NCBI GenBank assembly: GCA_046350795.1
Contig: JAXLZT010000001.1
Coordinates: 181,780 to 245,779, forward strand
Length of the DNA stretch: 64,000 nucleotides
Direction of reading: 5' to 3'
Origin: Minisyncoccota bacterium
Lineage (GTDB): Bacteria; Patescibacteriota; Minisyncoccia; Phycocordibacterales; CALRHW01
Within the stretch, counting starts at the first letter, position 1; the number at the start of each line of letters is the position of its first letter. Below the pieces are notes generated by a model. It saw only the letters and a program-made list of their open reading frames with translations. It did no database searches and was not told the DNA's origin. Of the stretch, positions 5,072 to 30,507 are shown piece after piece. A program made the position numbers and the translations under genes.

Positions 5072-6751
5072 TTATCGTTCCTCTTCTAGATCTATTACGC
5101 GCTGTAATTCGTCCATAGAGGTCATACCTTGAAGTATTTTTATTATTCCATCCTGTTGCATATCTAGTATATGTTGTGGTACAGCTGCTTTTTTTATCTC
5201 GCGCTCGCTAGGATTTTCTTGGACGATTTTTTCTATATTTTGATCTGTAAGGATGGCTTCATATACACCCACGCGCCCTTTGTATCCAGTAAAATTACAC
5301 TTGGTGCATCCTTTTGCCTCCCAAATCATGTTTGGATTTAGGCCTTCTAGGTAGGTTTTGTCTTCAATGCTGTTTACTATCCTATCTAGATTGATTTTTT
5401 CTTGTTCTGTAGGAGCACGCTGTCCTTTGCAGTCTGTGCAGAGCTTGCGCACAAGTCTTTGGGCCATACAGACACTGATCGCTGAGGTAATAACCTTTGG
5501 ATTTACTCCTAGGTCTATTAGGCGAGGGAAAGCGCCCGCTGCGTTGTTGGTATGAAGTGTAGAAAATACCAAATGTCCTGTGAGGGCAGCGTTGATGGCT
5601 ATCTCAGCTGTTTCATTGTCGCGGATTTCTCCCACCATTATCACATCTGGATCTTGGCGTAGAGCAGAGCGTAGACCCTCGAGGAAAGTATAGCCGTCGT
5701 CGTTGGTTTGTGTTTGCACGATGCCGGGTAGGTGATACTCGATCGGATTTTCAATCGTAATTATTTTTATGTCTGGTGAATGAATTTTTTTCAAAAAAGC
5801 ATATAAGGTGGTGGTTTTTCCAGATCCAGTCGGTCCAGTGTTGAGTATCATGCCGTTTGGTTTTGAAATTGCATTTTGTAATACAGTAAGCAGGCGAGGA
5901 TGTATACCCAAATCTTCTAATGGTACAGAGATTGCTTTTGGATTAAGTACGCGAAGCACGATAGAGTCATTGTATGCTCCGGGCAGTAGGGATGTACGAA
6001 TTTCTATTTCATCATCATTTACTTTTATGCTAAATCTTCCGTCTTGAGCTTTTCCTCGGACGTTTAGTTTTAGGTTTGAAAGAAGTTTTAGTCGAGAAAG
6101 GATGAGATTGTAAGTCTCTGTATCAAAACGGACGATGTCTGTGAGCACGCCGTCTAGTCTATATCTTAGGCGTACGTAGTTTTCCTCTGGCTCGAGATGT
6201 ATGTCTGATGCTTTGTTGGAAAGTGCACCAGCGAGCATTGTTTCTAGTATTCTAGAAATACGATAGGCTTTTTTACCACCGATATTTTCTTCTAATATTT
6301 TTTTTAAATCATCTAGTGTGGTTACTTTCTCCAAAAGCTCCAATATTCCTTCATTGGAAATATCAAGCGCACCACCCTTTGTTTCCATAGACATGGAAAG
6401 ATCTTTGTATCTATCCCATACTTTTTTTAAACTCTCTGGAGAGACAAGGTATGTGATCAGTGTATAACCTCTTTTTTGTAGTGATTCTAGCGCTGTTTTT
6501 GTTTTTTCTGTAGAAGGAGAAAGGAGGCCGACATGAATTTTTTTATCTACTATATTAAACACAGCTATTTTTGCATCGAGGGCCTCTGTCTCTTTTATGA
6601 CACGCAATGCGTCTATATTTATAGGTACTACTGAGAGGTCTAGATAGGGAATGCCATATTTTTCTGAGAGAGTTTGGGTGAGAATTTCTGCTTCGCGTCT
6701 TTTTAGCTCTTCGACGCGAGCGTTTTGTTTTTCTTCGTTAAATTCAACCAT
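5072..6751 (-). CDS. pilB: Type IV pilus assembly / type II secretion ATPase (PilB/GspE family)
   Basis: 559 aa; Walker A LNTGPTGSGKTTTLYAFL, GspE N-terminal domain, C-terminal CxxC...CxxC zinc motif (CTDCKGQ...CTKCNFTGY). Confidence 0.85.
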   Translation of the reverse strand: MVEFNEEKQNARVEELKRREAEILTQTLSEKYGIPYLDLSVVPINIDALRVIKETEALDAKIAVFNIVDKKIHVGLLSPSTEKTKTALESLQKRGYTLITYLVSPESLKKVWDRYKDLSMSMETKGGALDISNEGILELLEKVTTLDDLKKILEENIGGKKAYRISRILETMLAGALSNKASDIHLEPEENYVRLRYRLDGVLTDIVRFDTETYNLILSRLKLLSNLKLNVRGKAQDGRFSIKVNDDEIEIRTSLLPGAYNDSIVLRVLNPKAISVPLEDLGIHPRLLTVLQNAISKPNGMILNTGPTGSGKTTTLYAFLKKIHSPDIKIITIENPIEYHLPGIVQTQTNDDGYTFLEGLRSALRQDPDVIMVGEIRDNETAEIAINAALTGHLVFSTLHTNNAAGAFPRLIDLGVNPKVITSAISVCMAQRLVRKLCTDCKGQRAPTEQEKINLDRIVNSIEDKTYLEGLNPNMIWEAKGCTKCNFTGYKGRVGVYEAILTDQNIEKIVQENPSEREIKKAAVPQHILDMQQDGIIKILQGMTSMDELQRVIDLEEER

Positions 6752-6824
6752 ATGTAGACTTTATACTAGCATTTTCAGCATTTTTTAAACATATATCTCT
6801 GGGGAAATGGGGGTCTTGTTAGGG

Positions 6825-8352: not shown

Positions 8353-10761
8353 ATGCCAGAGAAAAAACAAAATAAAAAAATAGTTTTACTTGATGTGCAC
8401 GCTATCATACATCGCGCATATCACGCTTTGCCTGATTTTGCTTCTACAAAAGGCGAGCCGACTGGTGCTATATATGGACTTTGCACAATGCTTTTAAAAA
8501 TCGTTGCCGACCTTTCTCCTGATTTCATTGTCGCTTGTTATGATCTACCGGAAAAAACCCACAGACATGAAGCATACGAAGCATACAAAGCGACTCGCAA
8601 GAAAATAGACGACGCTCTCGTCGCGCAGATAGTGCGATCAAATGATGTTTTCAAGGCGTTTAGTATTCCGTCATATTCTTTTGCTGGTTTTGAAGCGGAC
8701 GACGTGCTCGGTACTATTGTTGAGACACTGAAACACGACAAGAGTACAGACATAGTGATCGCATCCGGTGATATGGACACGATGCAACTCGTGGATGATA
8801 AAAAGGTGCGAGTATATACTTTGCGAAAGGGAATAAAAGACACGGTAATATATGATGAGGATGCTGTTGTGGAAAGATTTGGTTTTGTGCCAACACTTTT
8901 GCCAGACTACAAGGGTTTGCGTGGCGATCCTTCTGACAATATTATCGGCATTGCTGGTATCGGCGAAAAGACAGCGACTATTTTAATACAAAAGTTTGGC
9001 ACACTAGAAAAAATGTATAAGGTGCTAAAAAAAGATCAGGCACCGTTTAGAGAAGCCGGGATCACTCCGCGTATCATTGATTTACTTTTGAAAGGCGAGG
9101 AAGAAGCCCTATTTTCAAAAACATTAGCAACTATTCGCCGTGACGCGCCGATTGATTTTAAAATGCCGGAAAAGACATGGAAAGAAGCGGTGGATATAAA
9201 AGCAGTCGAGACACTTTTTGCCGAGCTTGAGTTTAAGGCTCTTCTTTCCCGAGTAGAAAATGCACTAGGTATAAAAAAAATGCCCTTGCAGGCAAGCTTG
9301 CTTGGAGGTGACGGTGAGGAGGGCAACGGTAGCGCAGACGCACAAAAAGAAGTATTGCCGGAAAGCGAAATGAAAAAACTATCTCTGGCGCTTTGGATTA
9401 TTGATTCAAATATTACTAGCCCATCTATCGAAGACGTTTTGCGATTTGCGCACACCGAGTCTTTGCTACGCGCGCGAGATTTTATCATGTCCGAGCTTGA
9501 GAAAAGAAATCTGATGAAAGTTTTTCGCGAAATAGAAGAACCACTCATGCGTGTGATAGAGGCAATGGAGAAGCGGGGGATAAAAATAGATGCAAAATAT
9601 TTGCGCCAGCTTTCAAAGCAGTATCATGCCGATCTTGCCGAGCTCGAGAAAAATATTTGGCGTGAAGCTGGTGAGGAATTTAATATAAATTCACCAAAAC
9701 AGCTTGGCGTGATACTTTTTGACAAACTCGGGCTCAGCGTAAAAGGACTCAAAAAAACAGCGGGTGGCGAGCGCTCTACTCGTGAAAGCGAGCTAGAAAA
9801 AATGGAAGGACTTCATCCCATCATTGATTACATATTAAAATACCGCGTGCTACAAAAACTTCTTTCTACATATATAGATACACTACCTACACTTTTGGCA
9901 GAAGACGGCCGACTGCACACTACTTTTTTGCAGACTGGTACGACGACGGGGCGCATGTCTTCCAACAATCCCAACATTCAAAATATTCCCATCAAAACAG
10001 ATGCAGGTAAAAAGATTCGTGATGCTTTTGTCGCGGAAAAAGGCTTTAAGCTAGTAAAGTTTGATTATTCTCAAATAGAGCTACGCATTGCCGCGCTTTT
10101 GTCTGGTGATGAAAAGCTTATAGAAATATTTAAATCGGGTGGAGATATTCATCAGGCTGTGGCATCAGAAGTTTTTAAAGTACCACGCGAAAAAGTCGAT
10201 AGAGAAATGCGTCGCAAAGCCAAAGTGATCAATTTCGGCATCCTTTACGGTATGGGTGTGAACGCTTTGAAGAAAAATCTAGACAGCACTCGCGAAGAAG
10301 CACAGTTTTTCTACGATGAATATTTCAAAAATTTCAGCGGTCTTGCGAGCTATCTAGAGTCAGTAAAAGCCAGTGCAAAAAAGCTCGGATACACAGAAAC
10401 TTTTTTTGGTCGTCGCCGATATTTTCCAAATATAAAATCAAAGCTGCCATATATCGCTGCTGCCAACGAACGCATGGCCATCAACGCGCCGATACAAGGC
10501 ACTTCTGCGGATATCATAAAGATAGCGATGGTGAGGATACATGAATACATTGAGCGAGCGGGTCTTTCTAAAGACGTTTTTCTGCTTTTGCAAGTGCACG
10601 ATGAGCTTGTGTTTGAAATAAAAGAGGAGGTGGTCGCAAAGGTGACGCCAGAGCTAGAGCGCATAATGCAAGAAGTGCTTAAGCCAGAGGAAATGCTCGG
10701 TATCCCTCTTGTGGTCAATGGCGAGGTCGGGGATAATTGGGGGCAAACGGAGGCGCTGTAA
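8353..10761 (+). CDS. polA: DNA polymerase I (5'-3' exonuclease + family A polymerase domain)
   Basis: 802 aa; N-terminal 5'-nuclease/FEN, pol motifs DYSQIELRIAA (motif A), RRKAKVINFGILYG (motif B), QVHDELVFE (motif C). Confidence 0.9.
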   Translation: MPEKKQNKKIVLLDVHAIIHRAYHALPDFASTKGEPTGAIYGLCTMLLKIVADLSPDFIVACYDLPEKTHRHEAYEAYKATRKKIDDALVAQIVRSNDVFKAFSIPSYSFAGFEADDVLGTIVETLKHDKSTDIVIASGDMDTMQLVDDKKVRVYTLRKGIKDTVIYDEDAVVERFGFVPTLLPDYKGLRGDPSDNIIGIAGIGEKTATILIQKFGTLEKMYKVLKKDQAPFREAGITPRIIDLLLKGEEEALFSKTLATIRRDAPIDFKMPEKTWKEAVDIKAVETLFAELEFKALLSRVENALGIKKMPLQASLLGGDGEEGNGSADAQKEVLPESEMKKLSLALWIIDSNITSPSIEDVLRFAHTESLLRARDFIMSELEKRNLMKVFREIEEPLMRVIEAMEKRGIKIDAKYLRQLSKQYHADLAELEKNIWREAGEEFNINSPKQLGVILFDKLGLSVKGLKKTAGGERSTRESELEKMEGLHPIIDYILKYRVLQKLLSTYIDTLPTLLAEDGRLHTTFLQTGTTTGRMSSNNPNIQNIPIKTDAGKKIRDAFVAEKGFKLVKFDYSQIELRIAALLSGDEKLIEIFKSGGDIHQAVASEVFKVPREKVDREMRRKAKVINFGILYGMGVNALKKNLDSTREEAQFFYDEYFKNFSGLASYLESVKASAKKLGYTETFFGRRRYFPNIKSKLPYIAAANERMAINAPIQGTSADIIKIAMVRIHEYIERAGLSKDVFLLLQVHDELVFEIKEEVVAKVTPELERIMQEVLKPEEMLGIPLVVNGEVGDNWGQTEAL

Positions 10762-22764: not shown

Positions 22765-23277
22765 GTGATGTTTGTTGTTGTAAATGACAAAATGCAAAAG
22801 GGTTATCAGTACGAACTCTCTGAAAAGATGGGTGAAAATTTTGCGCCGGAATTTAAGCCAGACCTTACACCAAAAGAAATGCTTGAGATGGGCGTGTTTG
22901 GTGGGGTATATATGAGGGATTGTGTAGATGAGTTTCCGTCTGATTGGTTTGTAAAGGCAAAATTTGCACCAAAAGACACAAAAGAACACTTGGCCGAATT
23001 AAACTTTTTCAAAATAAACGCAAGTCAGCCACTGTCTGTCTGGAAAAAGAAGGGCTGGATTTATCATGAAGATCCGCGAGGGTGGTTTCAGTGGTATTGC
23101 CGGTATTATATGGGGCGCAGAATTTCAAAAGAGGATGAGAGGCAGATAAAAAGGTGGAAGGCTATCAGTAGACACATAGCTCAAGTGCAAAAAAACTGTC
23201 GCGCAGGCGATGCAATGTGCCGACCACGCCAACGTCAGGCGATACTACACTGGGCATATGATAGTAGAAGAGTTTAG
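22765..23277 (+). CDS. Hypothetical protein (Trp/Tyr-rich motif GWFQWYCRYYMGRR)
   Basis: 170 aa, no family recognised from memory. Confidence 0.4.
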   Translation: MMFVVVNDKMQKGYQYELSEKMGENFAPEFKPDLTPKEMLEMGVFGGVYMRDCVDEFPSDWFVKAKFAPKDTKEHLAELNFFKINASQPLSVWKKKGWIYHEDPRGWFQWYCRYYMGRRISKEDERQIKRWKAISRHIAQVQKNCRAGDAMCRPRQRQAILHWAYDSRRV

Positions 23278-23380
23278 GAGTAGGAAAAGCGATAGAAATA
23301 ATTGAATCTTGACCCCATTTCTCCGATGCCTTAGTCTAGGGACAGAATCTTTGACATCACCCCCCCACAAGGAGTAAAAA

Positions 23381-24490
23381 TTGAACACAAACAATGTTCC
23401 TACCATTTGCCTGACGGGTGGACCCTGTGCGGGCAAGACCACCATCCTTAGTCGTTTGCAAGAGAGGCTCGATGACCTTGGCTTTGCGGTGGTTGTGGTG
23501 CCTGAGGTGGCGACAGAGTTCATCTCTTCAGGCATCCGGCCTGCTTTGATCGAGCCACACCGCTTTCAGTGCCACATCCTTGAGCACATCATGGCCAAGG
23601 AAGATCGTTTCAAGGCGCTCGCTCAGATCATGTCTGTCGACAAGAAGGTCGTCATATGTGATCGAGGCGCAGTCGATGCTGCTGCATACATGTCGCCCAT
23701 GCATTTTGACTTGATGCTCGGCCAGCTTGGACTCACTGTCGTCGACTTGCGTGACGCTCGATACGACGGCGTGGTGTTCTTGCGTTCTGTTGCGGTGGAC
23801 GCTCCCCATATCTACACCTGCGATAACAACAAAGCTCGCAGGGAGTCAGTAGAGGAGGCTTGTTTGATCGACGAGTGTACGCTCGCTGCGTGGACTGGAC
23901 ATCCGCACTTGCGTGTCATCGACAACAGCACCGATCTCGAAGGCAAATCACATCGGGTACTTCAGGCGATTTGCAGAGTGCTCGGCATCCCCACACCCCT
24001 GGAGATTGAGAAAAAGTACCTGGTGAACCAGTGCGATCTCAGTCGTCTTCCGCTTCCTCATCGGTCTGTGGAAATCGAACAGTACTACCTCAAGACCGAA
24101 GACGGAAAGGGAGTGGAACGTATTCGTCGACGAAGTCAGTGTGGAGGCTTTACTTACTACCACACTGTGAAGCAGGATCTTCGCTCCGGTGTGCGTATTG
24201 AGAATGAAAGTCAGATCACCGAGGCCGAGTTCCTGATCCTCCTGCAAAGAGCAGATCCGGAGTTTGGCAAGATCGGAAAGACCCGGTACTGCTTTCTGTG
24301 GAACAATCAGTACTTTGAGCTCGACGTGTTCCACAACCCCTCCGGCCTGGTTCTGCTCGAGATCGAGCTCACGGAAGAGAACGACTTGGTCATCTTGCCA
24401 GACTTTCTCGTGGGCCATGTGATGGATGTAACTGGCAGCGATAGGTACAGCAATGTTCAAATCGCTCGTCGAATCGTAGCCGGGGTGTGA
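23381..24490 (+). CDS. P-loop nucleoside/nucleotide-kinase-like domain fused to C-terminal CYTH (triphosphate tunnel metalloenzyme) domain; GC-rich gene
   Basis: Walker A ICLTGGPCAGKTT (AAA_28/uridine-kinase-like) then EIEKKYLV...YYLKTEDGKGVERIRRR...LLEIELTEE (CYTH EIERKF-type start and acidic tunnel residues). Confidence 0.6.
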   Translation: MNTNNVPTICLTGGPCAGKTTILSRLQERLDDLGFAVVVVPEVATEFISSGIRPALIEPHRFQCHILEHIMAKEDRFKALAQIMSVDKKVVICDRGAVDAAAYMSPMHFDLMLGQLGLTVVDLRDARYDGVVFLRSVAVDAPHIYTCDNNKARRESVEEACLIDECTLAAWTGHPHLRVIDNSTDLEGKSHRVLQAICRVLGIPTPLEIEKKYLVNQCDLSRLPLPHRSVEIEQYYLKTEDGKGVERIRRRSQCGGFTYYHTVKQDLRSGVRIENESQITEAEFLILLQRADPEFGKIGKTRYCFLWNNQYFELDVFHNPSGLVLLEIELTEENDLVILPDFLVGHVMDVTGSDRYSNVQIARRIVAGV

Positions 24491-24516
24491 TGCTGTTCGT
24501 TCGCCAAATGAAACAA

Positions 24517-24549
24517 GGCCCGCGCTTCCTCAAGCGCGGGCCTTTTGCT
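24517..24549 (+). terminator. Rho-independent terminator (GGCCCGCGC-TTCCTCAA-GCGCGGGCC + TTTTGCT)
   Basis: Read directly. Confidence 0.7.
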
Positions 24550-24587
24550 GTGTAGTTCTCTTTAATAGGCTATATGTACACTCATAG

Positions 24588-24616
24588 CAAGAAAAAGGGC
24601 CGCCAGGTGGCGGCCC
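24588..24616 (-). terminator. Minus-strand terminator (GGGCCGCCAGGTGGCGGCCC hairpin, U-run on minus side) for the 24701-25219 gene
   Basis: Read directly; convergent with the preceding terminator. Confidence 0.6.
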
Positions 24617-24700
24617 TTTGGGGGGGGTGTGTGAACAGTAAATACAACTCTGCTCGTTCACCCAAAACGGTGTCGAGGACTTACTTCTCTTTTACAGCTA

Positions 24701-25219
24701 CTACTCCAGTGTGGCGAGAACGAGGTCGCGATCTGTCAGGACGCGATTCTTGATCTGCCTTGTGCCGTCTTCCTGCACGACGTAGGTCGTGACGTAGTAC
24801 TCGCGATAGGAGAGAGACACCCTCCTACCGTTGTACAGACTCCACTGATTGTAGAGCTGTGGACCGTTGAGGATGAGGTTGAACCCAGGTGCACGGAATG
24901 CTGTCGTGTACACCGGAGACCCCCTCGAGCTCTGTGGACCGTACTGGTGACGGTGGTTGTTCTCACGGTTGACTTCAGCCATGATGGGGAAAGGGAATGA
25001 CCTTACCCTCACCAACGGAAGCACGATCTCTCTCGGGTCATCAGCAGTCTCCACCGTTGCGACACAATTCATGGTGTCGGAGTGTTCATGCACGTAGAGC
25101 AGCTTCTCGCTGGGGAAGTACTTGTCGTTGATGAAGACCGTTCCACAGATCATGAACGTGGCGACCAGAGTGATGGCCATCGTGATTGCATGCGGGTTTC
25201 TCTCAGCCCAGTTGGGCAT
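24701..25219 (-). CDS. Hypothetical N-terminally membrane-anchored protein; GC-rich gene
   Basis: 172 aa; TM MAITLVATFMICGTVFI; no domain recognised. Confidence 0.45.
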   Translation of the reverse strand: MPNWAERNPHAITMAITLVATFMICGTVFINDKYFPSEKLLYVHEHSDTMNCVATVETADDPREIVLPLVRVRSFPFPIMAEVNRENNHRHQYGPQSSRGSPVYTTAFRAPGFNLILNGPQLYNQWSLYNGRRVSLSYREYYVTTYVVQEDGTRQIKNRVLTDRDLVLATLE

Positions 25220-25361
25220 TTTCTCTCCTTTCCGTAAGTGACTCTGCAGAAGAAAGCCTGAACGAGTGTCCAGGAGAACTTTCTAGACCTAATAATATCA
25301 TATTTAATGCGACAAGTCAAGTATGTGGAGCCTCGTAGAGGCTGTTAGAGCGTATTATAAC

Positions 25362-25757
25362 CTAGCTTTTGTAAGAATCCTCTGAAATGAATTCAAGACT
25401 ATTTCCGCTTGGATCTCTGAAATAGATGGATTGAATATTTTCTTCCCACGAAACTTCTTTTTCGATAGACACTCCGTTTTGTTTTAGTCGATCAGACCAG
25501 TAGGGAAATTCTTCATTTGGAATACCAAACGCTATGTGTCCTTGTCCAACAGAACCATGTACAGGAACAACACCTCCAGATATTTTTGTTTTTTCAGGAT
25601 TAAATAAAATAAGAACGCTGTCACCACAGCGTAAAAAAATATTTCTGCCAGGGGTTTCGTCTATTTTTTCAAAATTCAGGATTTCTGTGTAAAATTTTTC
25701 TGCTTTTTCAAGATCATCAACGTAAAGCGAAGTTTCTAAGATTTTTTTAATTTTCAT
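25362..25757 (-). CDS. Glyoxalase/bleomycin-resistance/VOC-family protein
   Basis: IKKILETSLYVDDLEKAEKFYTEILNF...HIAFGIPNEEF...FRDPSGNSLEF; start set at MKIKKI (ATG 25755-25757). Confidence 0.7.
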   Translation of the reverse strand: MKIKKILETSLYVDDLEKAEKFYTEILNFEKIDETPGRNIFLRCGDSVLILFNPEKTKISGGVVPVHGSVGQGHIAFGIPNEEFPYWSDRLKQNGVSIEKEVSWEENIQSIYFRDPSGNSLEFISEDSYKS

Positions 25758-25771
25758 ACGTTGATTATAAC

Positions 25772-25797
25772 AAAACCCGCAGTTTTGCGGGTTTTGT
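25772..25797 (-). terminator. Minus-strand terminator (AAAACCCGCA-GTTT-TGCGGGTTTT) ending the lexA-divergent small-protein operon
   Basis: Read directly. Confidence 0.6.
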
Positions 25798-25981
25798 CTC
25801 AAGCGGGGTAGATATCCTGAGGCTTGAACCGAAAGTACGGCTCAAATTCAAGGATATTGATCAAATTATACAGAAACTAAGGGTTGTCTACAAAGTCCAT
25901 CCCGAGTGATTTGAGGTGCTAAAACCTAAATCAACCAAAGGTAAAAATGTAGCGGATTATAGTATTTCTTAAGTCTGTGCA

Positions 25982-26314
25982 TTAATGAAACCAGTGCATC
26001 ACAATATCTATTGCCAAAATTGCTGTAGCGACAGCAGAGATGGTCGTTGCTACCATTATACACTTGGTTAAGCTTAGGGCCTTTTCAGTTAGCGACTCGG
26101 AAGATTTATTGAATTGATCTAATCTATAGTTTAAATCCGCTATTCGCTTAGTGAGATAACCAACCTGTGTTCCAATTTGACTTCGAGTGTTTGCAATCCC
26201 CGTTGTCATTAATTGCATGGCTCTCGTTAGGCCTTTCATACCACTTGGGGTAGCGCTCTCATGAGCTAAATCCCATTCTGACTTCTCTAACTCTGGAAAT
26301 TGGTTTGTACTCAT
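25982..26314 (-). CDS. Small tail-anchored membrane protein (paralog A), ~111 aa
   Basis: Start taken at MSTNQFPELEKSEWDL; C-terminal TM IMVATTISAVATAILAIDIVMHWFH; N-terminus paralogous to the next gene. Confidence 0.5.
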   Translation of the reverse strand: MSTNQFPELEKSEWDLAHESATPSGMKGLTRAMQLMTTGIANTRSQIGTQVGYLTKRIADLNYRLDQFNKSSESLTEKALSLTKCIMVATTISAVATAILAIDIVMHWFH

Positions 26315-26319
26315 GATTT

Positions 26320-26583
26320 TTATAAAGCTAAAATTATTTGAATAATAAGTCCTACAAGCATCGCTACTGTTAAACCGACAATACACCATGTAAGGCCAAC
26401 TAGTTTATCTGTTTGTTTAGAAGATTGATTATTGAAAGTTTCGATCGTTTCTTGTAGTTTGCTTAATGCACGTCTAGTTAATTCATCAGAAGCGAGTGAG
26501 CCGTAATGTGGGCTTGATTGATTTATCAATTGCCATAATTGTTTGTCTTCCGAATCTTCAAGTTTTGGAGAAAAATTAGTCAT
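26320..26583 (-). CDS. Small tail-anchored membrane protein (paralog B), 87 aa
   Basis: MTNFSPKLEDSEDKQLWQL...; C-terminal TM LVGLTWCIVGLTVAMLVGLIIQIILAL. Confidence 0.5.
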   Translation of the reverse strand: MTNFSPKLEDSEDKQLWQLINQSSPHYGSLASDELTRRALSKLQETIETFNNQSSKQTDKLVGLTWCIVGLTVAMLVGLIIQIILAL

Positions 26584-26600
26584 AATTTTATTAAGAGATG

Positions 26601-26819
26601 TTAGTCGTTTAGTTCTTTGCGTGCTAAGAGCATTATTTTCTTTCTTCCTTCGCTCGGACTTACTTTCTTTGCTGCATCGAATAACGCTTCTTTTATATTA
26701 GCCTTTGTTTTGTCTGGGAACTGTTTTTTCAATTGGTTTATTGCATAATAAACCTCATAGTTTTGCTTGAAGCTGATCAAGTTTTGATCCCCCTGTATTT
26801 TATTTTTACTGTCTGCCAT
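26601..26819 (-). CDS. Small basic hypothetical protein, 72 aa (first gene of lexA-divergent operon)
   Basis: MADSKNKIQGDQNLISFKQNYEVYYAINQLKKQFPDK... Confidence 0.45.
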   Translation of the reverse strand: MADSKNKIQGDQNLISFKQNYEVYYAINQLKKQFPDKTKANIKEALFDAAKKVSPSEGRKKIMLLARKELND

Positions 26820-26852
26820 TTTGATTAAAATTAGTTAATAATTAAACCTTGA

Positions 26853-26899
26853 AATCTGTGGATAAACCACTTGATTAGGTATTTGTAAGGCATTATACT
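26853..26899 (+). promoter_or_regulatory. lexA promoter TTGATT-N17-TATACT with overlapping inverted repeat AATCtGTGG-ATAAA-CCACttGATT (candidate LexA operator) in the lexA/small-protein divergent region
   Basis: -35 at 26871-26876, -10 at 26894-26899, ATG at 26906 (leaderless or near-leaderless); palindrome core GTGG-N5-CCAC at 26858-26870. Confidence 0.4.
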
Positions 26900-26905
26900 T
26901 TAGGT

Positions 26906-27532
26906 ATGGAAAATAAGTCAAGTCTTGGAATAGGCAAACCATCAAAGCGACAGGCCGAAATTCTACAATTCATTACGGAATTTAGGAAAAAGAAAGGATA
27001 TGCCCCCTCTCTTGCAGAAATTGCAGACAATTTTAGTGTATCTGTTCCAACTGTCCACCAACACGTCTCTTATCTAAAAAGAAAGAATTTACTTGCAACA
27101 GAGAAAGGTAAGAGGAGATCTATTCAAGCGATGAATATTAACAAAAGCGGCGTGATAGAAATACCGCTCATGGGTCTGATTGCCGCGGGTGGACCGATTG
27201 AGGCAATTCGGGACCCTCGGCCGATAGAAGTACCTCGTAACATGGTTTCTGTTGGCTCAAATTTCTATGCTCTTAAAGTAGCCGGCGCTAGTATGATCGA
27301 GGATGGTATTTTTGATGGCGACATTGTGATCGTAAAAGATCAACCCACGGTGGACGACGGAGAAAAAGCTGTTGCATACTTGCCCGATAAAGATGTGGTC
27401 ACTTTGAAAAGAATTTACCGCGACAAAAACCGAATCAAGTTAGTTCCTGCCAACAAAAGCATGAAGCCCTTTTACGAAACAAATATTGAAATACAAGGAA
27501 AGGTCGTTGGTGTTCTAAGGAAAGAAAATTAA
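26906..27532 (+). CDS. lexA: LexA repressor (wHTH + S24 peptidase)
   Basis: SKRQAEILQFITEFRKKKGYAPSLAEIADNFSVSVPTVHQHVSYLKRKNLL (LexA DNA-binding), VAGASM...KRIY (Ser/Lys dyad region). Confidence 0.85.
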   Translation: MENKSSLGIGKPSKRQAEILQFITEFRKKKGYAPSLAEIADNFSVSVPTVHQHVSYLKRKNLLATEKGKRRSIQAMNINKSGVIEIPLMGLIAAGGPIEAIRDPRPIEVPRNMVSVGSNFYALKVAGASMIEDGIFDGDIVIVKDQPTVDDGEKAVAYLPDKDVVTLKRIYRDKNRIKLVPANKSMKPFYETNIEIQGKVVGVLRKEN

Positions 27533-27544
27533 GTAATCGCTAGT

Positions 27545-29425
27545 ATGGCATCACAAATTCATGAAGAAATAAATAAATATCTATCAGCCAATGTGGGGGC
27601 TAATTTTGAATGCCTTGAAAGCGCATTAATTAGCGCAGTATTAAATACGTCCAAAAAATACAAAATAAAGAACGAAATAATAAATAAGGTAATTTCACTA
27701 GAAAGTTCCGATAGAGAAATTGCCTATAAATGGATAATCGAGAATATAAAAGAGCCGAGTATCGCACATGTTTTGATACTTTATGAGGTTTGTGTTTCTC
27801 CGGAAAATCGTAAGCTTGATGGTGCGTATTTTACTCCTGACAGTATTGTAGATGCTATCGTTGATTTGACGGTTGGGAATATGGTTGGTTCTATTTGTGA
27901 TCCAGCTTGTGGAAGCGGAGCTTTTTTGCTTGGATCACTAAAAAAACTTCTACTAAACAATGCAGGGTCAATAGATGAAGTGCTTTCTAAATATATATGG
28001 GGTATCGACATTAACGGTCAGAATGTTGAGCATTCTAAAAGAATACTTTCACTTTACGCTGTTCTTGAAGGTGTTGATAAAAAACACTTTGATATTGGGA
28101 TTTTTCAAGGTAACAGCTTAAATTTTTCATGGCAGAATACTCCGAGAAAAAAAGCAGAGTTTGATTTTATAGTCGGTAACCCCCCTTATGTCAGAGGTCG
28201 AAATTTAACTCCAAAACTAAAATCCCAGATCAAATCGTGGTCGTCTGCTAATGGTGGTATTGCAGATTTGTATATTCCTTTTTTCGAGATTGGCCTTACT
28301 TGGGCAGCAGATGATGGAAGGATTGGGTATATTACACCAAATACATACTTCTCATCAATTAATGGTCGTGGGGTCAGGAAAATGATCGTAGGTAAAAAAA
28401 TTCTTGAGAAAATTATTGATTTTGATGGATTTCCCGCATTTGAAGGCTTACTCACCTACACCTGTGTCACGATTCTTGATAAAAGCGGTGTGATCGAGCC
28501 GTTAATTGGAATGGCAAACTCCTTTAATCAACTCCAAGATATTCGGCGAATTAAACTTTCCAAAATAAATTATTCAGAACTTGAAAATAATGACTGGTAC
28601 ATACGTCCTCCAGATATAACACGTAACCTGCGAATGATGGAGAGGGTCGGTACACCACTAGACACTTACGTTCCTAAATTTACTACCGGCGTTGCAACCC
28701 TGCGAAATGACCTGTACATTTTTGATGGCCCAATAAAAAATGGATTTCTCTTTGTAGAAAGAGATGGAAAGCTTTTTAGAATTGAGGCAGATGCTACTGT
28801 GCCAATAATTAAACCAAACAAAATAAAGACAGAAGAGCAATTAAAGAAGAACTCGGAAAGAATTCTTTATCCCTATCGCTTCGTGTCTGGTCGTAAAAGA
28901 CCAGAACTTATACCGGAGGCTGAATTTAGTAAAAGTTTTCCAGGAGCTTACTCCTATTTACTACACTATCGAGCCGATTTAGAGAAACGTTCAATGGATA
29001 AGGGATCTGCTTGGTATGCTTTCGGTCGTTCGCAGGCACTTGATGGATTTGGTAAGAAAATTATTTTCCCAATGATGTCAGATCGTCCAGTTTTCTTACA
29101 TGTTACAGACCCAAATACTTTAATATACTGTGGATATGCACTTTATTCTGATTCAGAAGAAAAGACACAGATTTTACTGAAAATATTAAATTCTTCTGTC
29201 TTTTGGAATTATTTAGCGAATACCAGCAAGAATTATGCTAACGGATACAAGTCGCTAGCAAAAAATTATGTTAAAAAGTTTTCAATCCCCAAGTTTTCTA
29301 ATGTAGAAATTAAAAAATTGATGGCAATATCGGGAAATGATCTAGAATATTTCTTGAAAGAAAAATATTCTAACTCTATCGTGTCGCCCCAGATGCGTCA
29401 GGGGGAGCTACAACTTTTTTCCTAA
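27545..29425 (+). CDS. Gamma-class N6-adenine (Eco57I/TaqI-like) DNA methyltransferase, 626 aa
   Basis: Motif X YFTPDSIVDAIV, motif I DPACGSGAFLL, motif IV VGNPPYV in gamma order; long C-terminal TRD-like region. Confidence 0.75.
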   Translation: MASQIHEEINKYLSANVGANFECLESALISAVLNTSKKYKIKNEIINKVISLESSDREIAYKWIIENIKEPSIAHVLILYEVCVSPENRKLDGAYFTPDSIVDAIVDLTVGNMVGSICDPACGSGAFLLGSLKKLLLNNAGSIDEVLSKYIWGIDINGQNVEHSKRILSLYAVLEGVDKKHFDIGIFQGNSLNFSWQNTPRKKAEFDFIVGNPPYVRGRNLTPKLKSQIKSWSSANGGIADLYIPFFEIGLTWAADDGRIGYITPNTYFSSINGRGVRKMIVGKKILEKIIDFDGFPAFEGLLTYTCVTILDKSGVIEPLIGMANSFNQLQDIRRIKLSKINYSELENNDWYIRPPDITRNLRMMERVGTPLDTYVPKFTTGVATLRNDLYIFDGPIKNGFLFVERDGKLFRIEADATVPIIKPNKIKTEEQLKKNSERILYPYRFVSGRKRPELIPEAEFSKSFPGAYSYLLHYRADLEKRSMDKGSAWYAFGRSQALDGFGKKIIFPMMSDRPVFLHVTDPNTLIYCGYALYSDSEEKTQILLKILNSSVFWNYLANTSKNYANGYKSLAKNYVKKFSIPKFSNVEIKKLMAISGNDLEYFLKEKYSNSIVSPQMRQGELQLFS

Positions 29426-30080
29426 AAGCAGCAACGATATTATCAAAAAAGTTCTCTAGCTTTAGTTCTACTTGGCTTGGGAAAACATCCGAGAGTTCCG
29501 GTGGATTAGCATTAAAGTCAATAACACAATACGCAACATTTTCATATTTTGTAAGCTGAGTATCAGCTCGTCGAATTTTAAAGAATAGTTGGTTAGATGC
29601 AGCCTCATAGTTGAATGAGCCAACCGGCCCAACAGGTTTCTTTGTTGGTAAATCAGATAACGGATGCAGATACACCAATCCAACAGAGCAAGTTGGGAAT
29701 TGCTCGTGTATACTCTCAACTTCACCAGCTTTCATTCTAATGTAGTTATTAAAATTCTTGCCGATTGATGTCATCTGACTACGAACGTCCACGATTAATA
29801 CTGGTTCACCTCGCTCATTTAGAACACCAACATCAGCCTCAACTTTCGTGCCTTCGACTTTAAACTTGGCTTCTTTTTCTATTTTAAATCTAAGATCTTC
29901 AATACCGCGTTTACGTAGTTCATTTTCGCAATAATCTTGAAACAATGTAATAAAAGCTTTGCTTCTAACAGCTTTTGTTGGGTCTTTAATGAAAAGATCC
30001 CTCATTTTAATTAGGGTTTTAGTAAGTTCTGTGGTGTCGATAGCTATATTCTTATTTTGCTTCGGTTTTAACTTGGACAT
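29376..30080 (-). CDS. Putative type II restriction endonuclease partner (hypothetical)
   Basis: 234 aa, convergent with and overlapping the MTase 3' end by ~50 bp; no confident PD-(D/E)xK assignment by eye. Confidence 0.35.
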   Translation of the reverse strand: MSKLKPKQNKNIAIDTTELTKTLIKMRDLFIKDPTKAVRSKAFITLFQDYCENELRKRGIEDLRFKIEKEAKFKVEGTKVEADVGVLNERGEPVLIVDVRSQMTSIGKNFNNYIRMKAGEVESIHEQFPTCSVGLVYLHPLSDLPTKKPVGPVGSFNYEAASNQLFFKIRRADTQLTKYENVAYCVIDFNANPPELSDVFPSQVELKLENFFDNIVAAFRKKVVAPPDASGATR

Positions 30081-30081
30081 T

Positions 30082-30171
30082 TGGCGGAGGAGGTGAGATT
30101 CGAACTCACGGGACCCTTACGAGCCCTCTTGTTTTCAAGACAAGTGCATTCGACCACTCTGCCACTCCTCC
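30082..30171 (-). tRNA. tRNA-Ser (anticodon TGA), long variable arm, CCA encoded
   Basis: Acceptor GGAGGAG/CTCCTCC, anticodon loop CTTGAAA, variable arm AGGGCTCGTAAGGGTCCC; 90 nt. Confidence 0.8.
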
Positions 30172-30225
30172 AGAGATTGTCGCGCTTTTGCCCTACGGCC
30201 ACGCGTCAATCGGTCTATATTTATG

Positions 30226-30468
30226 CTATTTCTCTTCTGTTTCAGACACCACTGTATATTTTTTTGCCACGAAATACAAGTATATGATATCCAGTATTCC
30301 AACGGTATTGATTACCAAAATGGCAATAAACCATTTTTTATGCGACAGCTGAGCTGATCGCCAAAGGGCAAGACCTTTCCAAATAATGCTCCACAGCATT
30401 ATGGCAAATGCCAAAGCGGGGTGATTACTAAAGAAAAGCTCTACATTTTTTATATTTTCTACGAGCAT
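30226..30468 (-). CDS. Small two-TM membrane protein
   Basis: 80 aa; LAFAIMLWSIIWKGLALW / WFIAILVINTVGILDIIYLYFV. Confidence 0.45.
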   Translation of the reverse strand: MLVENIKNVELFFSNHPALAFAIMLWSIIWKGLALWRSAQLSHKKWFIAILVINTVGILDIIYLYFVAKKYTVVSETEEK

Positions 30469-30507
30469 GGGAGATATAATAACAAAAAAGTCTGATATAT
30501 TAAAGAT

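Follow-up and report, generated by a model that had tools for sequence, protein, structure and literature searches.

What do three small genes that face the SOS repressor gene lexA contribute to a bacterium of the candidate phyla radiation (CPR)? The question is raised by a 64,000-nt stretch, hereafter the window, of contig JAXLZT010000001.1 (assembly GCA_046350795.1, Minisyncoccota bacterium), in which the genes, here named P1, P2 and P3, are transcribed divergently from lexA. An earlier note, made from the sequence without database searches, had read them as a candidate SOS-induced division inhibitor or toxin and had overlooked that lexA is itself the first gene of a type II restriction-modification (R-M) operon, which changes the context. 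CPR bacteria have tiny genomes and few CRISPR (clustered regularly interspaced short palindromic repeat) systems and rely heavily on R-M. We found that the P1-P2-P3 operon occupies a variable, defence-rich slot next to this lexA-led R-M module in a Paceibacterota (CPR) genome. Our preferred reading, held tentatively and drawn from sequence comparison, is that P1-P2-P3 would be the SOS-derepressible cargo of a lexA-anchored defence island, with P2 and P3 oligomerising to impose a pause or an abortive response at the level of the membrane.

lexA heads a restriction-modification operon

By its sequence features, the window gene is a genuine lexA. The product contains the Pfam domains LexA_DNA_bind (PF01726) and Peptidase_S24 (PF00717), scores 158 bits against the TIGR00498 equivalog (cut-off 110.95) and, as read from the translation, keeps the Ala94-Gly95 cleavage site and the Ser129/Lys168 dyad. 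The gene is followed after 12 nt by that of a 626-aa type II methyltransferase, beyond which lies a convergent, overlapping gene for a candidate endonuclease; PADLOC recognises in the two the methyltransferase-endonuclease gene pair of a type II R-M system.

LexA of the window type yielded 1968 matches at E <= 1e-20, the top 120 being 77-93% identical and mostly 208 aa long. In seven further genomes, sampled on long contigs with a LexA 78-85% identical to that of the window, lexA is in every case (seven of seven) followed within 40 nt by a methyltransferase gene and accompanied by a convergent overlapping gene. The methyltransferase belongs to the C5 class in five of these sister genomes, to D12 in one and to N6_N4 in one; the convergent gene is of the BsobI type in L091 (fetched loci carry L numbers) and of the HNH type in L083, and L085 additionally encodes a helix-turn-helix (HTH_3) C protein. 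Elsewhere, an N6_N4 methyltransferase gene follows lexA in L008, and three loci encode LexA and an N6_N4 methyltransferase in a single open reading frame (ORF) on the minus strand (L025:2592-4457, L062:4081-5946 and L023:1-795). The fusion protein is complete, at 621 aa, in L025 and L062, and the contig end truncates it in L023. The fusions retain a complete LexA, with its DNA-binding domain, S24 autoprotease and Ala-Gly site; in L025 and L062 a convergent MvaI/BcnI endonuclease gene adjoins the fusion, together with an HTH_3 C protein gene in L062. Altogether, a DNA methyltransferase gene follows lexA or is fused to it in 12 of 12 readable loci. The far flank, encoding RuvX, VTT and PilM, is common to the window and the sister loci, indicating that the chromosomal position of lexA is conserved and its R-M partner replaced.

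Large serine recombinase genes lie a few kb past the lexA-linked R-M genes in two loci (L085:9244-10627 and L088:6437-7735), a hint that an integrative element may carry the R-M side, if not more. We found no report of LexA-R-M coupling or of a LexA-methyltransferase fusion in the literature searched, which did not cover the study of the Patescibacteria SOS network by Sanchez-Osuna, Barbe and Erill (2017), a work that bears on the novelty of the operator and regulon. One review of R-M (PMC12707154) never names LexA, and another (PMC3874152) names it only for toxin-antitoxin systems.

The slot opposite lexA holds variable cargo

P2 lies divergent from lexA in five independent loci representing three or four LexA types, namely the window, L026, L025, L019/L062 and L008 (L019, L062 and L063 are one locus, as are L008, L027 and L028). 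In L026, whose LexA is 77% identical to that of the window, P3 has decayed and the 67-aa gene described below is present only as a remnant. P2 was found in the lexA-divergent slot of none of the seven sister genomes, which instead encode there a 67-aa protein with DUF2130; a SEFIR/TIR protein; DUF4238; ubiquitin-like, E2 and E1 proteins; a patatin with a SMODS-domain nucleotidyltransferase, that is, a cyclic oligonucleotide-based antiphage signalling system (CBASS); a 447-aa protein; and a 74-aa protein with RecG. The arrangement, whose conservation in related genomes the earlier note had made a test of its proposal, is therefore not unique to this contig and recurs in five loci, but is absent from all seven sisters.

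The most recurrent first gene opposite lexA encodes a 67-69-aa protein (MPKYIRNAGKxW[ST]xQEExKL...), found at L008:5790-5999, L025:4523-4726 and L079:4704-4907 and as the remnant in L026 (~940-985); the L008 copy matches a PHROG annotated as transcriptional regulator (E 7.5e-10). In relatives this protein, unrelated to P1, fills the slot equivalent to that of P1. Past the last cargo gene, on the opposite strand, we also observed a conserved ~190-nt element with 72-78% nucleotide identity (window 25802-25995, plus strand), with further copies at L008 ~6590-6785, L025 ~6046-6190, L079 3192-3328, L090 706-853, L038 2932-3035 and L004 ~10380-10560. The element varies in a codon-like manner (...KFEPKKWLKFEDIDKSIQELRAIFKVHPEWFExPKPKSDKGKN...); no in-frame ATG, GTG or TTG occurs in five of the seven copies, and in the window copy TGA takes the place of the conserved Trp codon.

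P2 homologues reside in defence operons

To place the family more broadly, we used 17 loci from GTDB and 54 from metagenomes, corresponding to 51 unique P2 loci, 47 of them with a readable upstream side. P2 lies directly beside R-M or defence genes in 25 of these 47, which cover at least ten system types and include four lexA-methyltransferase loci. The upstream neighbour belongs to type I R-M in L011, L018 and L061, type III R-M in L009 and L010, type II R-M (MutH-like, DpnII, R.Pab1, EcoO109I or DpnI) in L012, L016, L033, L038, L044, L050 and L072, and type IIG/ISP in L013, L014 and L045; it is a ResIII helicase-nuclease in L017, GmrSD-HNH in L024 and L047, an OLD nuclease in L023, AbiTii in L068 and Cap15 in L077. 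Type IV R-M is also counted among the P2-adjacent systems, and two further loci, with a reverse transcriptase and DUF4268, are doubtful as defence contexts. P2 is typically encoded on the same strand as its upstream neighbour, starting 1-8 nt after it, and the next gene often shares 4 nt with it, the downstream neighbours being heterogeneous. DNA similarity between loci extends from the P2 ATG to the stop codon, with unrelated flanks. A discrete gene unit found near so many mechanistic classes indicates that P2 travels with defence operons, and its co-location and co-orientation with defence genes in unrelated contexts are those of a defence accessory gene. The preponderance of R-M and anti-phage operons among the family loci, together with the position of lexA at the head of an R-M operon, points to defence cargo rather than to a classic division inhibitor. 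The dedicated SOS division inhibitor of the earlier note thus finds little backing, with most P2 homologues in R-M or defence operons that lack lexA and other cargo in the sister slots. One P2 homologue, downstream of a type I HsdR gene (L018:6001-6236), is broken past about codon 48 by the GC-rich CGCGCGCTAAAGCGCGCGGG..., followed by the contig end; the break could be an insertion or an assembly join.

The family is large. P2 falls into 110 clusters at 90% identity, and a profile search retrieved 602 representatives at 50% identity, many of which match only the C-terminal module (~39-87); P3 forms only five clusters at 90% identity and P1 a singleton, encountered among 91 fetched loci only on three contigs with identical copies of the window locus. 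P2 homologues originate from Parcubacteria/Paceibacterota, Berkelbacteria, Magasanikiibacteriota and Gribaldobacteria, with some contigs labelled Saccharibacteria, and identity reaches 85-91% between CPR lineages with different labels; mis-binning is suspected for two contigs with non-CPR labels. A phage origin of P2 was considered and rejected after a scan of the IMG/VR viral contigs returned no relatives.

A conserved candidate bidirectional promoter precedes lexA

Three co-directional small genes do lie opposite lexA, the spacer between the start codons of P1 and lexA measuring 86 nt (the earlier note had 87). A promoter scan places the lexA -35 box, TTGATT, at 26871-26876 and, after a 17-nt spacer, the -10 box, TATACT, at 26894-26899; with the -10 only 6 nt before the ATG, the mRNA may be leaderless. 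The promoter contains the direct repeats TTAGGT (26875-26880), TAAGGC (26886-26891) and TTAGGT (26900-26905). Their shared form, TTAGGT-N5-TAAGGT with an 11-bp period, lies between the -35 and -10 boxes, and the third TTAGGT abuts the ATG. Nine lexA loci of this type (type A) share T-G-K-G-G-A-Y-A-A, N5-7, TTGATT AGGTTTAyrTAAGGTAT TATACT TTAGGT ATG ... AAGTCAA. A single match to the type-A repeat pattern exists in the 64-kb window, and the 87 loci scanned contain it only at the seven sister lexA promoters. Fusion-type loci have TTCTA-N6-TTCTA and loci of the L023/L069 type TTCGGT-N5-TTCGGT (equivalently GTTC-N7-GTTC) in the same place. The repeats thus change together with the LexA type, the behaviour expected of an operator, which marks them as the candidate LexA operator. 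In a passage of Kilic et al. (PMC7739468), the Patescibacteria study (Sanchez-Osuna 2017) is placed among the cases in which LexA has evolved a direct-repeat motif. Palindromic LexA boxes of the Gram-positive (CGAAC..GTTCG) or Escherichia coli (CTGT-N8-ACAG) kind were looked for by eye in the spacer and none was seen, and a GTGG-N5-CCAC palindrome was discarded as an operator, being not conserved in other loci.

On the minus strand, a candidate divergent promoter matches the consensus at 11 of 12 positions, with a -35 box, TTGACT (26921-26916), inside lexA codons 4-5, an 18-nt spacer and a -10 box, TATAAT (26897-26892), that overlaps the lexA -10 on the opposite strand. The corresponding AAGTCAA and ATTATA are invariant in nine of nine lexA loci, synonymous codon positions included. 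The arrangement suggests that LexA probably represses both directions, which leaves the LexA control proposed by the earlier note plausible on the grounds of a conserved bidirectional promoter with a candidate operator over the divergent -10.

A further element of the spacer, the 9-mer TGTGGATAA, is the reverse complement of the DnaA-box consensus TTATCCACA and lies within the discarded palindrome. It precedes every lexA examined, 5-7 nt from the -35 box (window, L019/L062, L023, L025, L026, L069, L079, L081, L083, L085, L088, L090 and L091, and with one mismatch L008), with the variants TGGGGATAA and TGTGGACAA and in inverted orientation in L023. Cargo start codons can abut the 9-mer (L083, L090 and L062), leaving no room for a separate cargo promoter. 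The 64-kb window contains two exact copies of TGTGGATAA, the other being intergenic at 2525-2533, between a plus-strand ORF whose end is at 2250 and a minus-strand one that ends at 2552. Since it stays the same where the repeats change with the LexA type, the 9-mer is probably not a LexA site; its sequence and position are such that it could be a DnaA site or a cargo-exchange junction.

P2 and P3 are paralogous membrane proteins

P2 and P3 are paralogues (the earlier note had counted two of the three genes as such, with matching N-termini): they share 28% identity (BLASTP, E 8e-6), and profile-profile comparison (hhalign) gives a probability of 94.8% and an E-value of 5.4e-8, the aligned part being confined to the juxtamembrane helix and the transmembrane (TM) segment. 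Each has a single hydrophobic segment, at residues 67-85 in P2 and 86-104 in P3, followed by only 2 and 6 residues, respectively. P1 has none (maximum KD19 -0.32) and is soluble, so the single C-terminal TM of the earlier note holds for P2 and P3 but not for P1. AlphaFold models of P2 (pLDDT 78.6) and P3 (73.0) show a short helix and then a single long helix reaching the C-terminus, and K56 and K60 lie on the N-terminal side of the P2 TM. With one TM within ~30 residues of the C-terminus, positive charges N-terminal to it and no N-terminal signal or TM, both proteins belong to the tail-anchored class. The P2 family is not uniformly tail-anchored: some members extend ~20-250 residues (mostly ~50-90) past the TM.

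P2 and P3 are under strong purifying selection. Where synonymous divergence (dS) could be estimated, the ratio of nonsynonymous to synonymous rates (dN/dS) was 0.03-0.16 for P2 and 0.13-0.18 for P3, dS being saturated in more distant pairs; the coding signal asked for in the earlier note is thus present in both. In an alignment of 42 P2-family sequences, the N-terminal M1, N3, F4, P6 and L8 are near-invariant and the block L30-R38 (LASDELTRR, or PLASDELTRR with the preceding P) is highly conserved. A heptad series (L43, F50, Q57, L64/T65, L71/T72, L79, Q82, L85), also near-invariant, forms a stripe along the cytosolic helix and on through the TM, the two helices joining without a break. Such conservation, extending to polar and small residues within the membrane, points to helix-helix packing, within an oligomer or with a partner, rather than to a passive anchor; we infer that the P2/P3 helix may serve oligomerisation or the binding of a membrane partner. 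The cytosolic part of P2 is slightly acidic.

Known families offered little guidance. Scans of P1-P3 against Pfam, PADLOC, PHROGs and NCBIfam gave nothing but background below the thresholds (TssF, DUF1664, synaptobrevin, RAMP4 and a "hemolysin" PHROG at E 0.008); P1 had no significant family match in Pfam, PHROGs or NCBIfam, and P2 matched no PADLOC model. A profile search of the PDB found nothing better than E 0.01, the matches being designed helical proteins. LysM and DUF883 (PF05957) matched neither P2 nor P3 at E <= 0.1 and none of the 42 family members at E <= 1; a Joint Genome Institute (JGI) label "ElaB/YqjD/DUF883" is attached to one chimeric member (P0112). The absence of LysM matches and the C-terminal TM bear out the remark of the earlier note that the architecture differs from the N-terminal-TM plus LysM types.

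Gene calls and other features of the locus

The features of the locus are collected in Table 1. The three genes are co-directional, with gaps of 17 nt between P1 and P2 and 5 nt between P2 and P3. The lengths of 72 and 87 aa given earlier for the first two genes stand; the third encodes 110 rather than ~111 aa. A 135-aa ORF in the mechanically generated list is the P3 frame begun at an upstream ATG inside P2, and homologues and public gene calls on identical contigs begin at MSTNQ, which sets the length of P3 at 110 aa. Those identical public contigs, for which NCBI gives a Candidatus Paceibacterota metagenome-assembled genome as the source, carry the same five gene calls, with P1, P2 and P3 all annotated as hypothetical. 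The P1-P3 transcript would stop at a hairpin formed by a 12-nt perfect inverted repeat (minus-strand RNA, -22.1 kcal/mol, z -6.7), followed by UUUUGUU. An Rfam scan of 24500-30500 at E <= 1 found no regulatory or toxin-antitoxin RNA, although novel antisense RNAs could escape Rfam. Adjoining the lexA island is a block of 51-53% GC (window 23000-25300) within the ~40% GC window. The block, which encodes an AAA_28/NTPase-like protein (23381-24490) and has a 172-aa ORF at 24701-25219, could stem from horizontal transfer, as would fit a hot spot.

Table 1. Features of the lexA island in window coordinates
Feature	Position	Strand	Description	Evidence
Predicted intrinsic-terminator hairpin	25770-25797	-	putative end of P1-P3 transcript	inverted repeat, RNA folding
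P3	25982-26314	-	110 aa, tail-anchored P2 paralogue	BLASTP, hhalign, AlphaFold, hydropathy
P2	26320-26583	-	87 aa, N-in tail-anchored	ORF, hydropathy, AlphaFold, alignment, context
P1	26601-26819	-	72 aa, lysine-rich, soluble, first gene of divergent operon	ORF call
9-mer TGTGGATAA	26857-26865	+	5 nt upstream of lexA -35	
lexA promoter and candidate LexA operator	26871-26905	+		promoter scan, conserved in nine loci
Candidate P1-P2-P3 promoter	26892-26921	-		promoter scan, 11/12 consensus positions
lexA	26906-27532	+	208 aa, autocleavable by sequence features, first gene of R-M operon	Pfam, TIGR00498
Type II N6-adenine DNA methyltransferase	27545-29425	+	Eco57I / N6_Mtase type	Pfam; PADLOC MTase_II, E 3e-110
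Candidate type II restriction endonuclease	29376-30080	-	convergent, overlaps methyltransferase	PADLOC REase_II, E 2.5e-9
tRNA-Ser	30082-30171		after candidate endonuclease	

Proposed role and alternative explanations

In the scenario that we tentatively prefer, LexA would bind the 11-bp-period direct repeats over the back-to-back -10 boxes and repress both the lexA-methyltransferase unit and P1-P2-P3. DNA damage caused by self-restriction, phage or genotoxins would activate RecA and induce LexA self-cleavage, derepressing both units. The methyltransferase level would then rise, protecting the genome, and P2 and P3 would enter the membrane and, by depolarising it or by blocking growth or division, impose a membrane-level pause or an abortive response that lasts for as long as the damage persists. 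In a more ambitious version, which we consider doubtful, LexA would act, in Paceibacteria and related CPR lineages, as the switch of a modular defence island, with the methyltransferase of an exchangeable R-M system co-transcribed or fused and a bidirectional operator shared with swap-in cargo (CBASS, TIR, ubiquitin-like proteins or P2/P3), P2 being a widely mobile and hitherto unrecognised membrane effector, a "pause button" that couples restriction breakage to growth or division arrest.

Several observations weigh against the defence-cargo scenario. The R-M genes with which P2 is co-transcribed in most loci are needed constitutively; this speaks both against a highly toxic product and against any requirement for SOS induction, and is the main counter to any toxin reading. 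The ~60-aa cytosolic part is more conserved than its counterparts in the pore-forming toxins TisB and Hok, which suits a specific protein partner at least equally well. About half of the P2 loci have no recognisable defence neighbour, and P3 also occurs without lexA or P2, its closest homologue on a long contig having no lexA within 10 kb. Finally, conservation is the sole basis on which the operator and the divergent promoter are proposed, and neither the window nor the fetched loci contain recA or another SOS gene.

The constitutive context would be compatible with P2 as a membrane adaptor for defence nucleases or as a blocker of DNA injection or uptake (superinfection exclusion). The tail anchor would hold a conserved cytosolic peptide against the inner membrane face, where it could help R-M and other nucleases to encounter incoming DNA. 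Tight co-transcription (1-8 nt gaps, 4-nt overlaps) with very different nuclease systems and the highly conserved N-terminal motif and PLASDELTRR block speak for such a role; nevertheless, we regard it as rather unlikely, for such diverse partner systems could hardly each be bound directly, the slightly acidic cytosolic part makes DNA binding improbable, no family member turned up in viral contigs, a common place for exclusion genes, and the conserved polar and small TM residues would be left unexplained. The dedicated SOS cell-division inhibitor, with P2 and P3 blocking the divisome after LexA cleavage in the manner of YneA, ChiZ, DivS and SidA, appears unlikely. It would account for small membrane proteins divergent from lexA in five lineages, for a candidate LexA operator that overlaps the divergent promoter and for a conserved cytosolic domain, which could bind a divisome protein, but it is hard to reconcile with the lack of synteny with lexA in all seven sisters of the same LexA type, the location of most family members in R-M or defence operons without lexA, and the lack of a LysM domain or of detectable similarity to any curated family.

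Alternatively, P2 might be a selfish hitch-hiker or addiction gene, similar to type I toxins, that spreads with mobile R-M cassettes and has no link to LexA, the lexA locus being simply an insertion hot spot. The discrete gene unit with unrelated flanks, the 85-91% identity across differently labelled CPR lineages, which points to horizontal transfer, the serine recombinases near some lexA-R-M loci and the tRNA-Ser flank in the window are all as expected of such a gene. The strong purifying selection maintained over a divergence long enough to saturate dS, the failure to find an antisense RNA or Rfam toxin-antitoxin element, the soluble domain, larger and more conserved than in known type I toxins, and the tolerance of P2 in constitutive operons make this improbable. 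Least credible to us, and very improbable indeed, is a general stress protein akin to ElaB, YqjD and YgaM that binds ribosomes or protects the membrane and sits in the island incidentally: the architecture and size agree, as does the JGI label on P0112, but DUF883 matches in 0 of 42 family members at E <= 1 and the lack of any NCBIfam match contradict it, and the bias toward defence neighbours would go unexplained.

The locus brings forward three ideas. An R-M methyltransferase may be under the direct control of an SOS repressor, in some cases within one fused polypeptide; abortive or defence effectors may be plugged in at the promoter opposite lexA; and R-M and defence operons may commonly carry, as a passenger, an unannotated family of tail-anchored proteins that numbers hundreds of clusters at 50% identity. 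Should any of the three prove true, bacterial immunity would have a new regulatory layer, and small membrane proteins that annotation pipelines now label "hypothetical" would gain a handle.

Comparison with known systems

By analogy, the P1-P3 system would work most like the YneA-class checkpoint proteins and TisB, and it appears to be a member of neither family, nor of DUF883. YneA, ChiZ, DivS and SidA/DidA are likewise small single-pass membrane proteins, induced by SOS or damage to inhibit division, and YneA in particular is LexA-repressed and encoded divergently from lexA, so that a division pause would be the expected output. However, YneA and ChiZ have an N-terminal TM and an extracellular LysM domain, whereas P2 and P3 have a C-terminal anchor and ~60-85 cytosolic residues; SidA is a 29-aa peptide; no sequence relationship of P2/P3 to the YneA/ChiZ/DivS/SidA group was detected; and the P2 family resides mostly in R-M or defence operons rather than at a fixed position beside lexA.

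The toxins of the TisB/IstR and Hok/Sok systems are small hydrophobic proteins as well, TisB being LexA-controlled and depolarising the membrane. P2 and P3 have three to four times the size of these toxins, and their soluble domain is strongly conserved; P2 is co-transcribed with housekeeping-like R-M genes. Type I toxins have at most 60 aa and an antisense RNA, compared with 87 aa for P2 and 110 aa for P3 and no Rfam hit in 24500-30500. The ElaB/YqjD/YgaM (DUF883) proteins resemble P2 and P3 in their length (~90-110 aa), helical cytosolic N-terminus, single C-terminal TM and N-in topology, but P2 and P3 lack a match to the DUF883 profile and its characteristic C-terminal motif and have a different genomic context.

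On the regulatory side, autoregulated type II R-M systems control the R-M promoter through C proteins or through methyltransferases with an N-terminal helix-turn-helix (M.SsoII, M.EcoRII). The lexA loci share with them a DNA-binding regulator upstream of, or fused to, the methyltransferase, and in L062 and L085 also an HTH_3 C protein beside the endonuclease, but the regulator here is a full cleavable LexA, with winged-helix and S24 autoprotease domains, so that R-M expression would respond to RecA-sensed DNA damage. CapH/CapP and CapW/BrxR are repressor systems that release CBASS or bacteriophage exclusion (BREX) defence operons after DNA damage, and one sister locus indeed has CBASS genes (patatin and a SMODS-domain nucleotidyltransferase) divergent from lexA. 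Unlike in those systems, the regulator in the lexA loci would be the cell's own LexA, acting at a single bidirectional promoter shared with interchangeable cargo.

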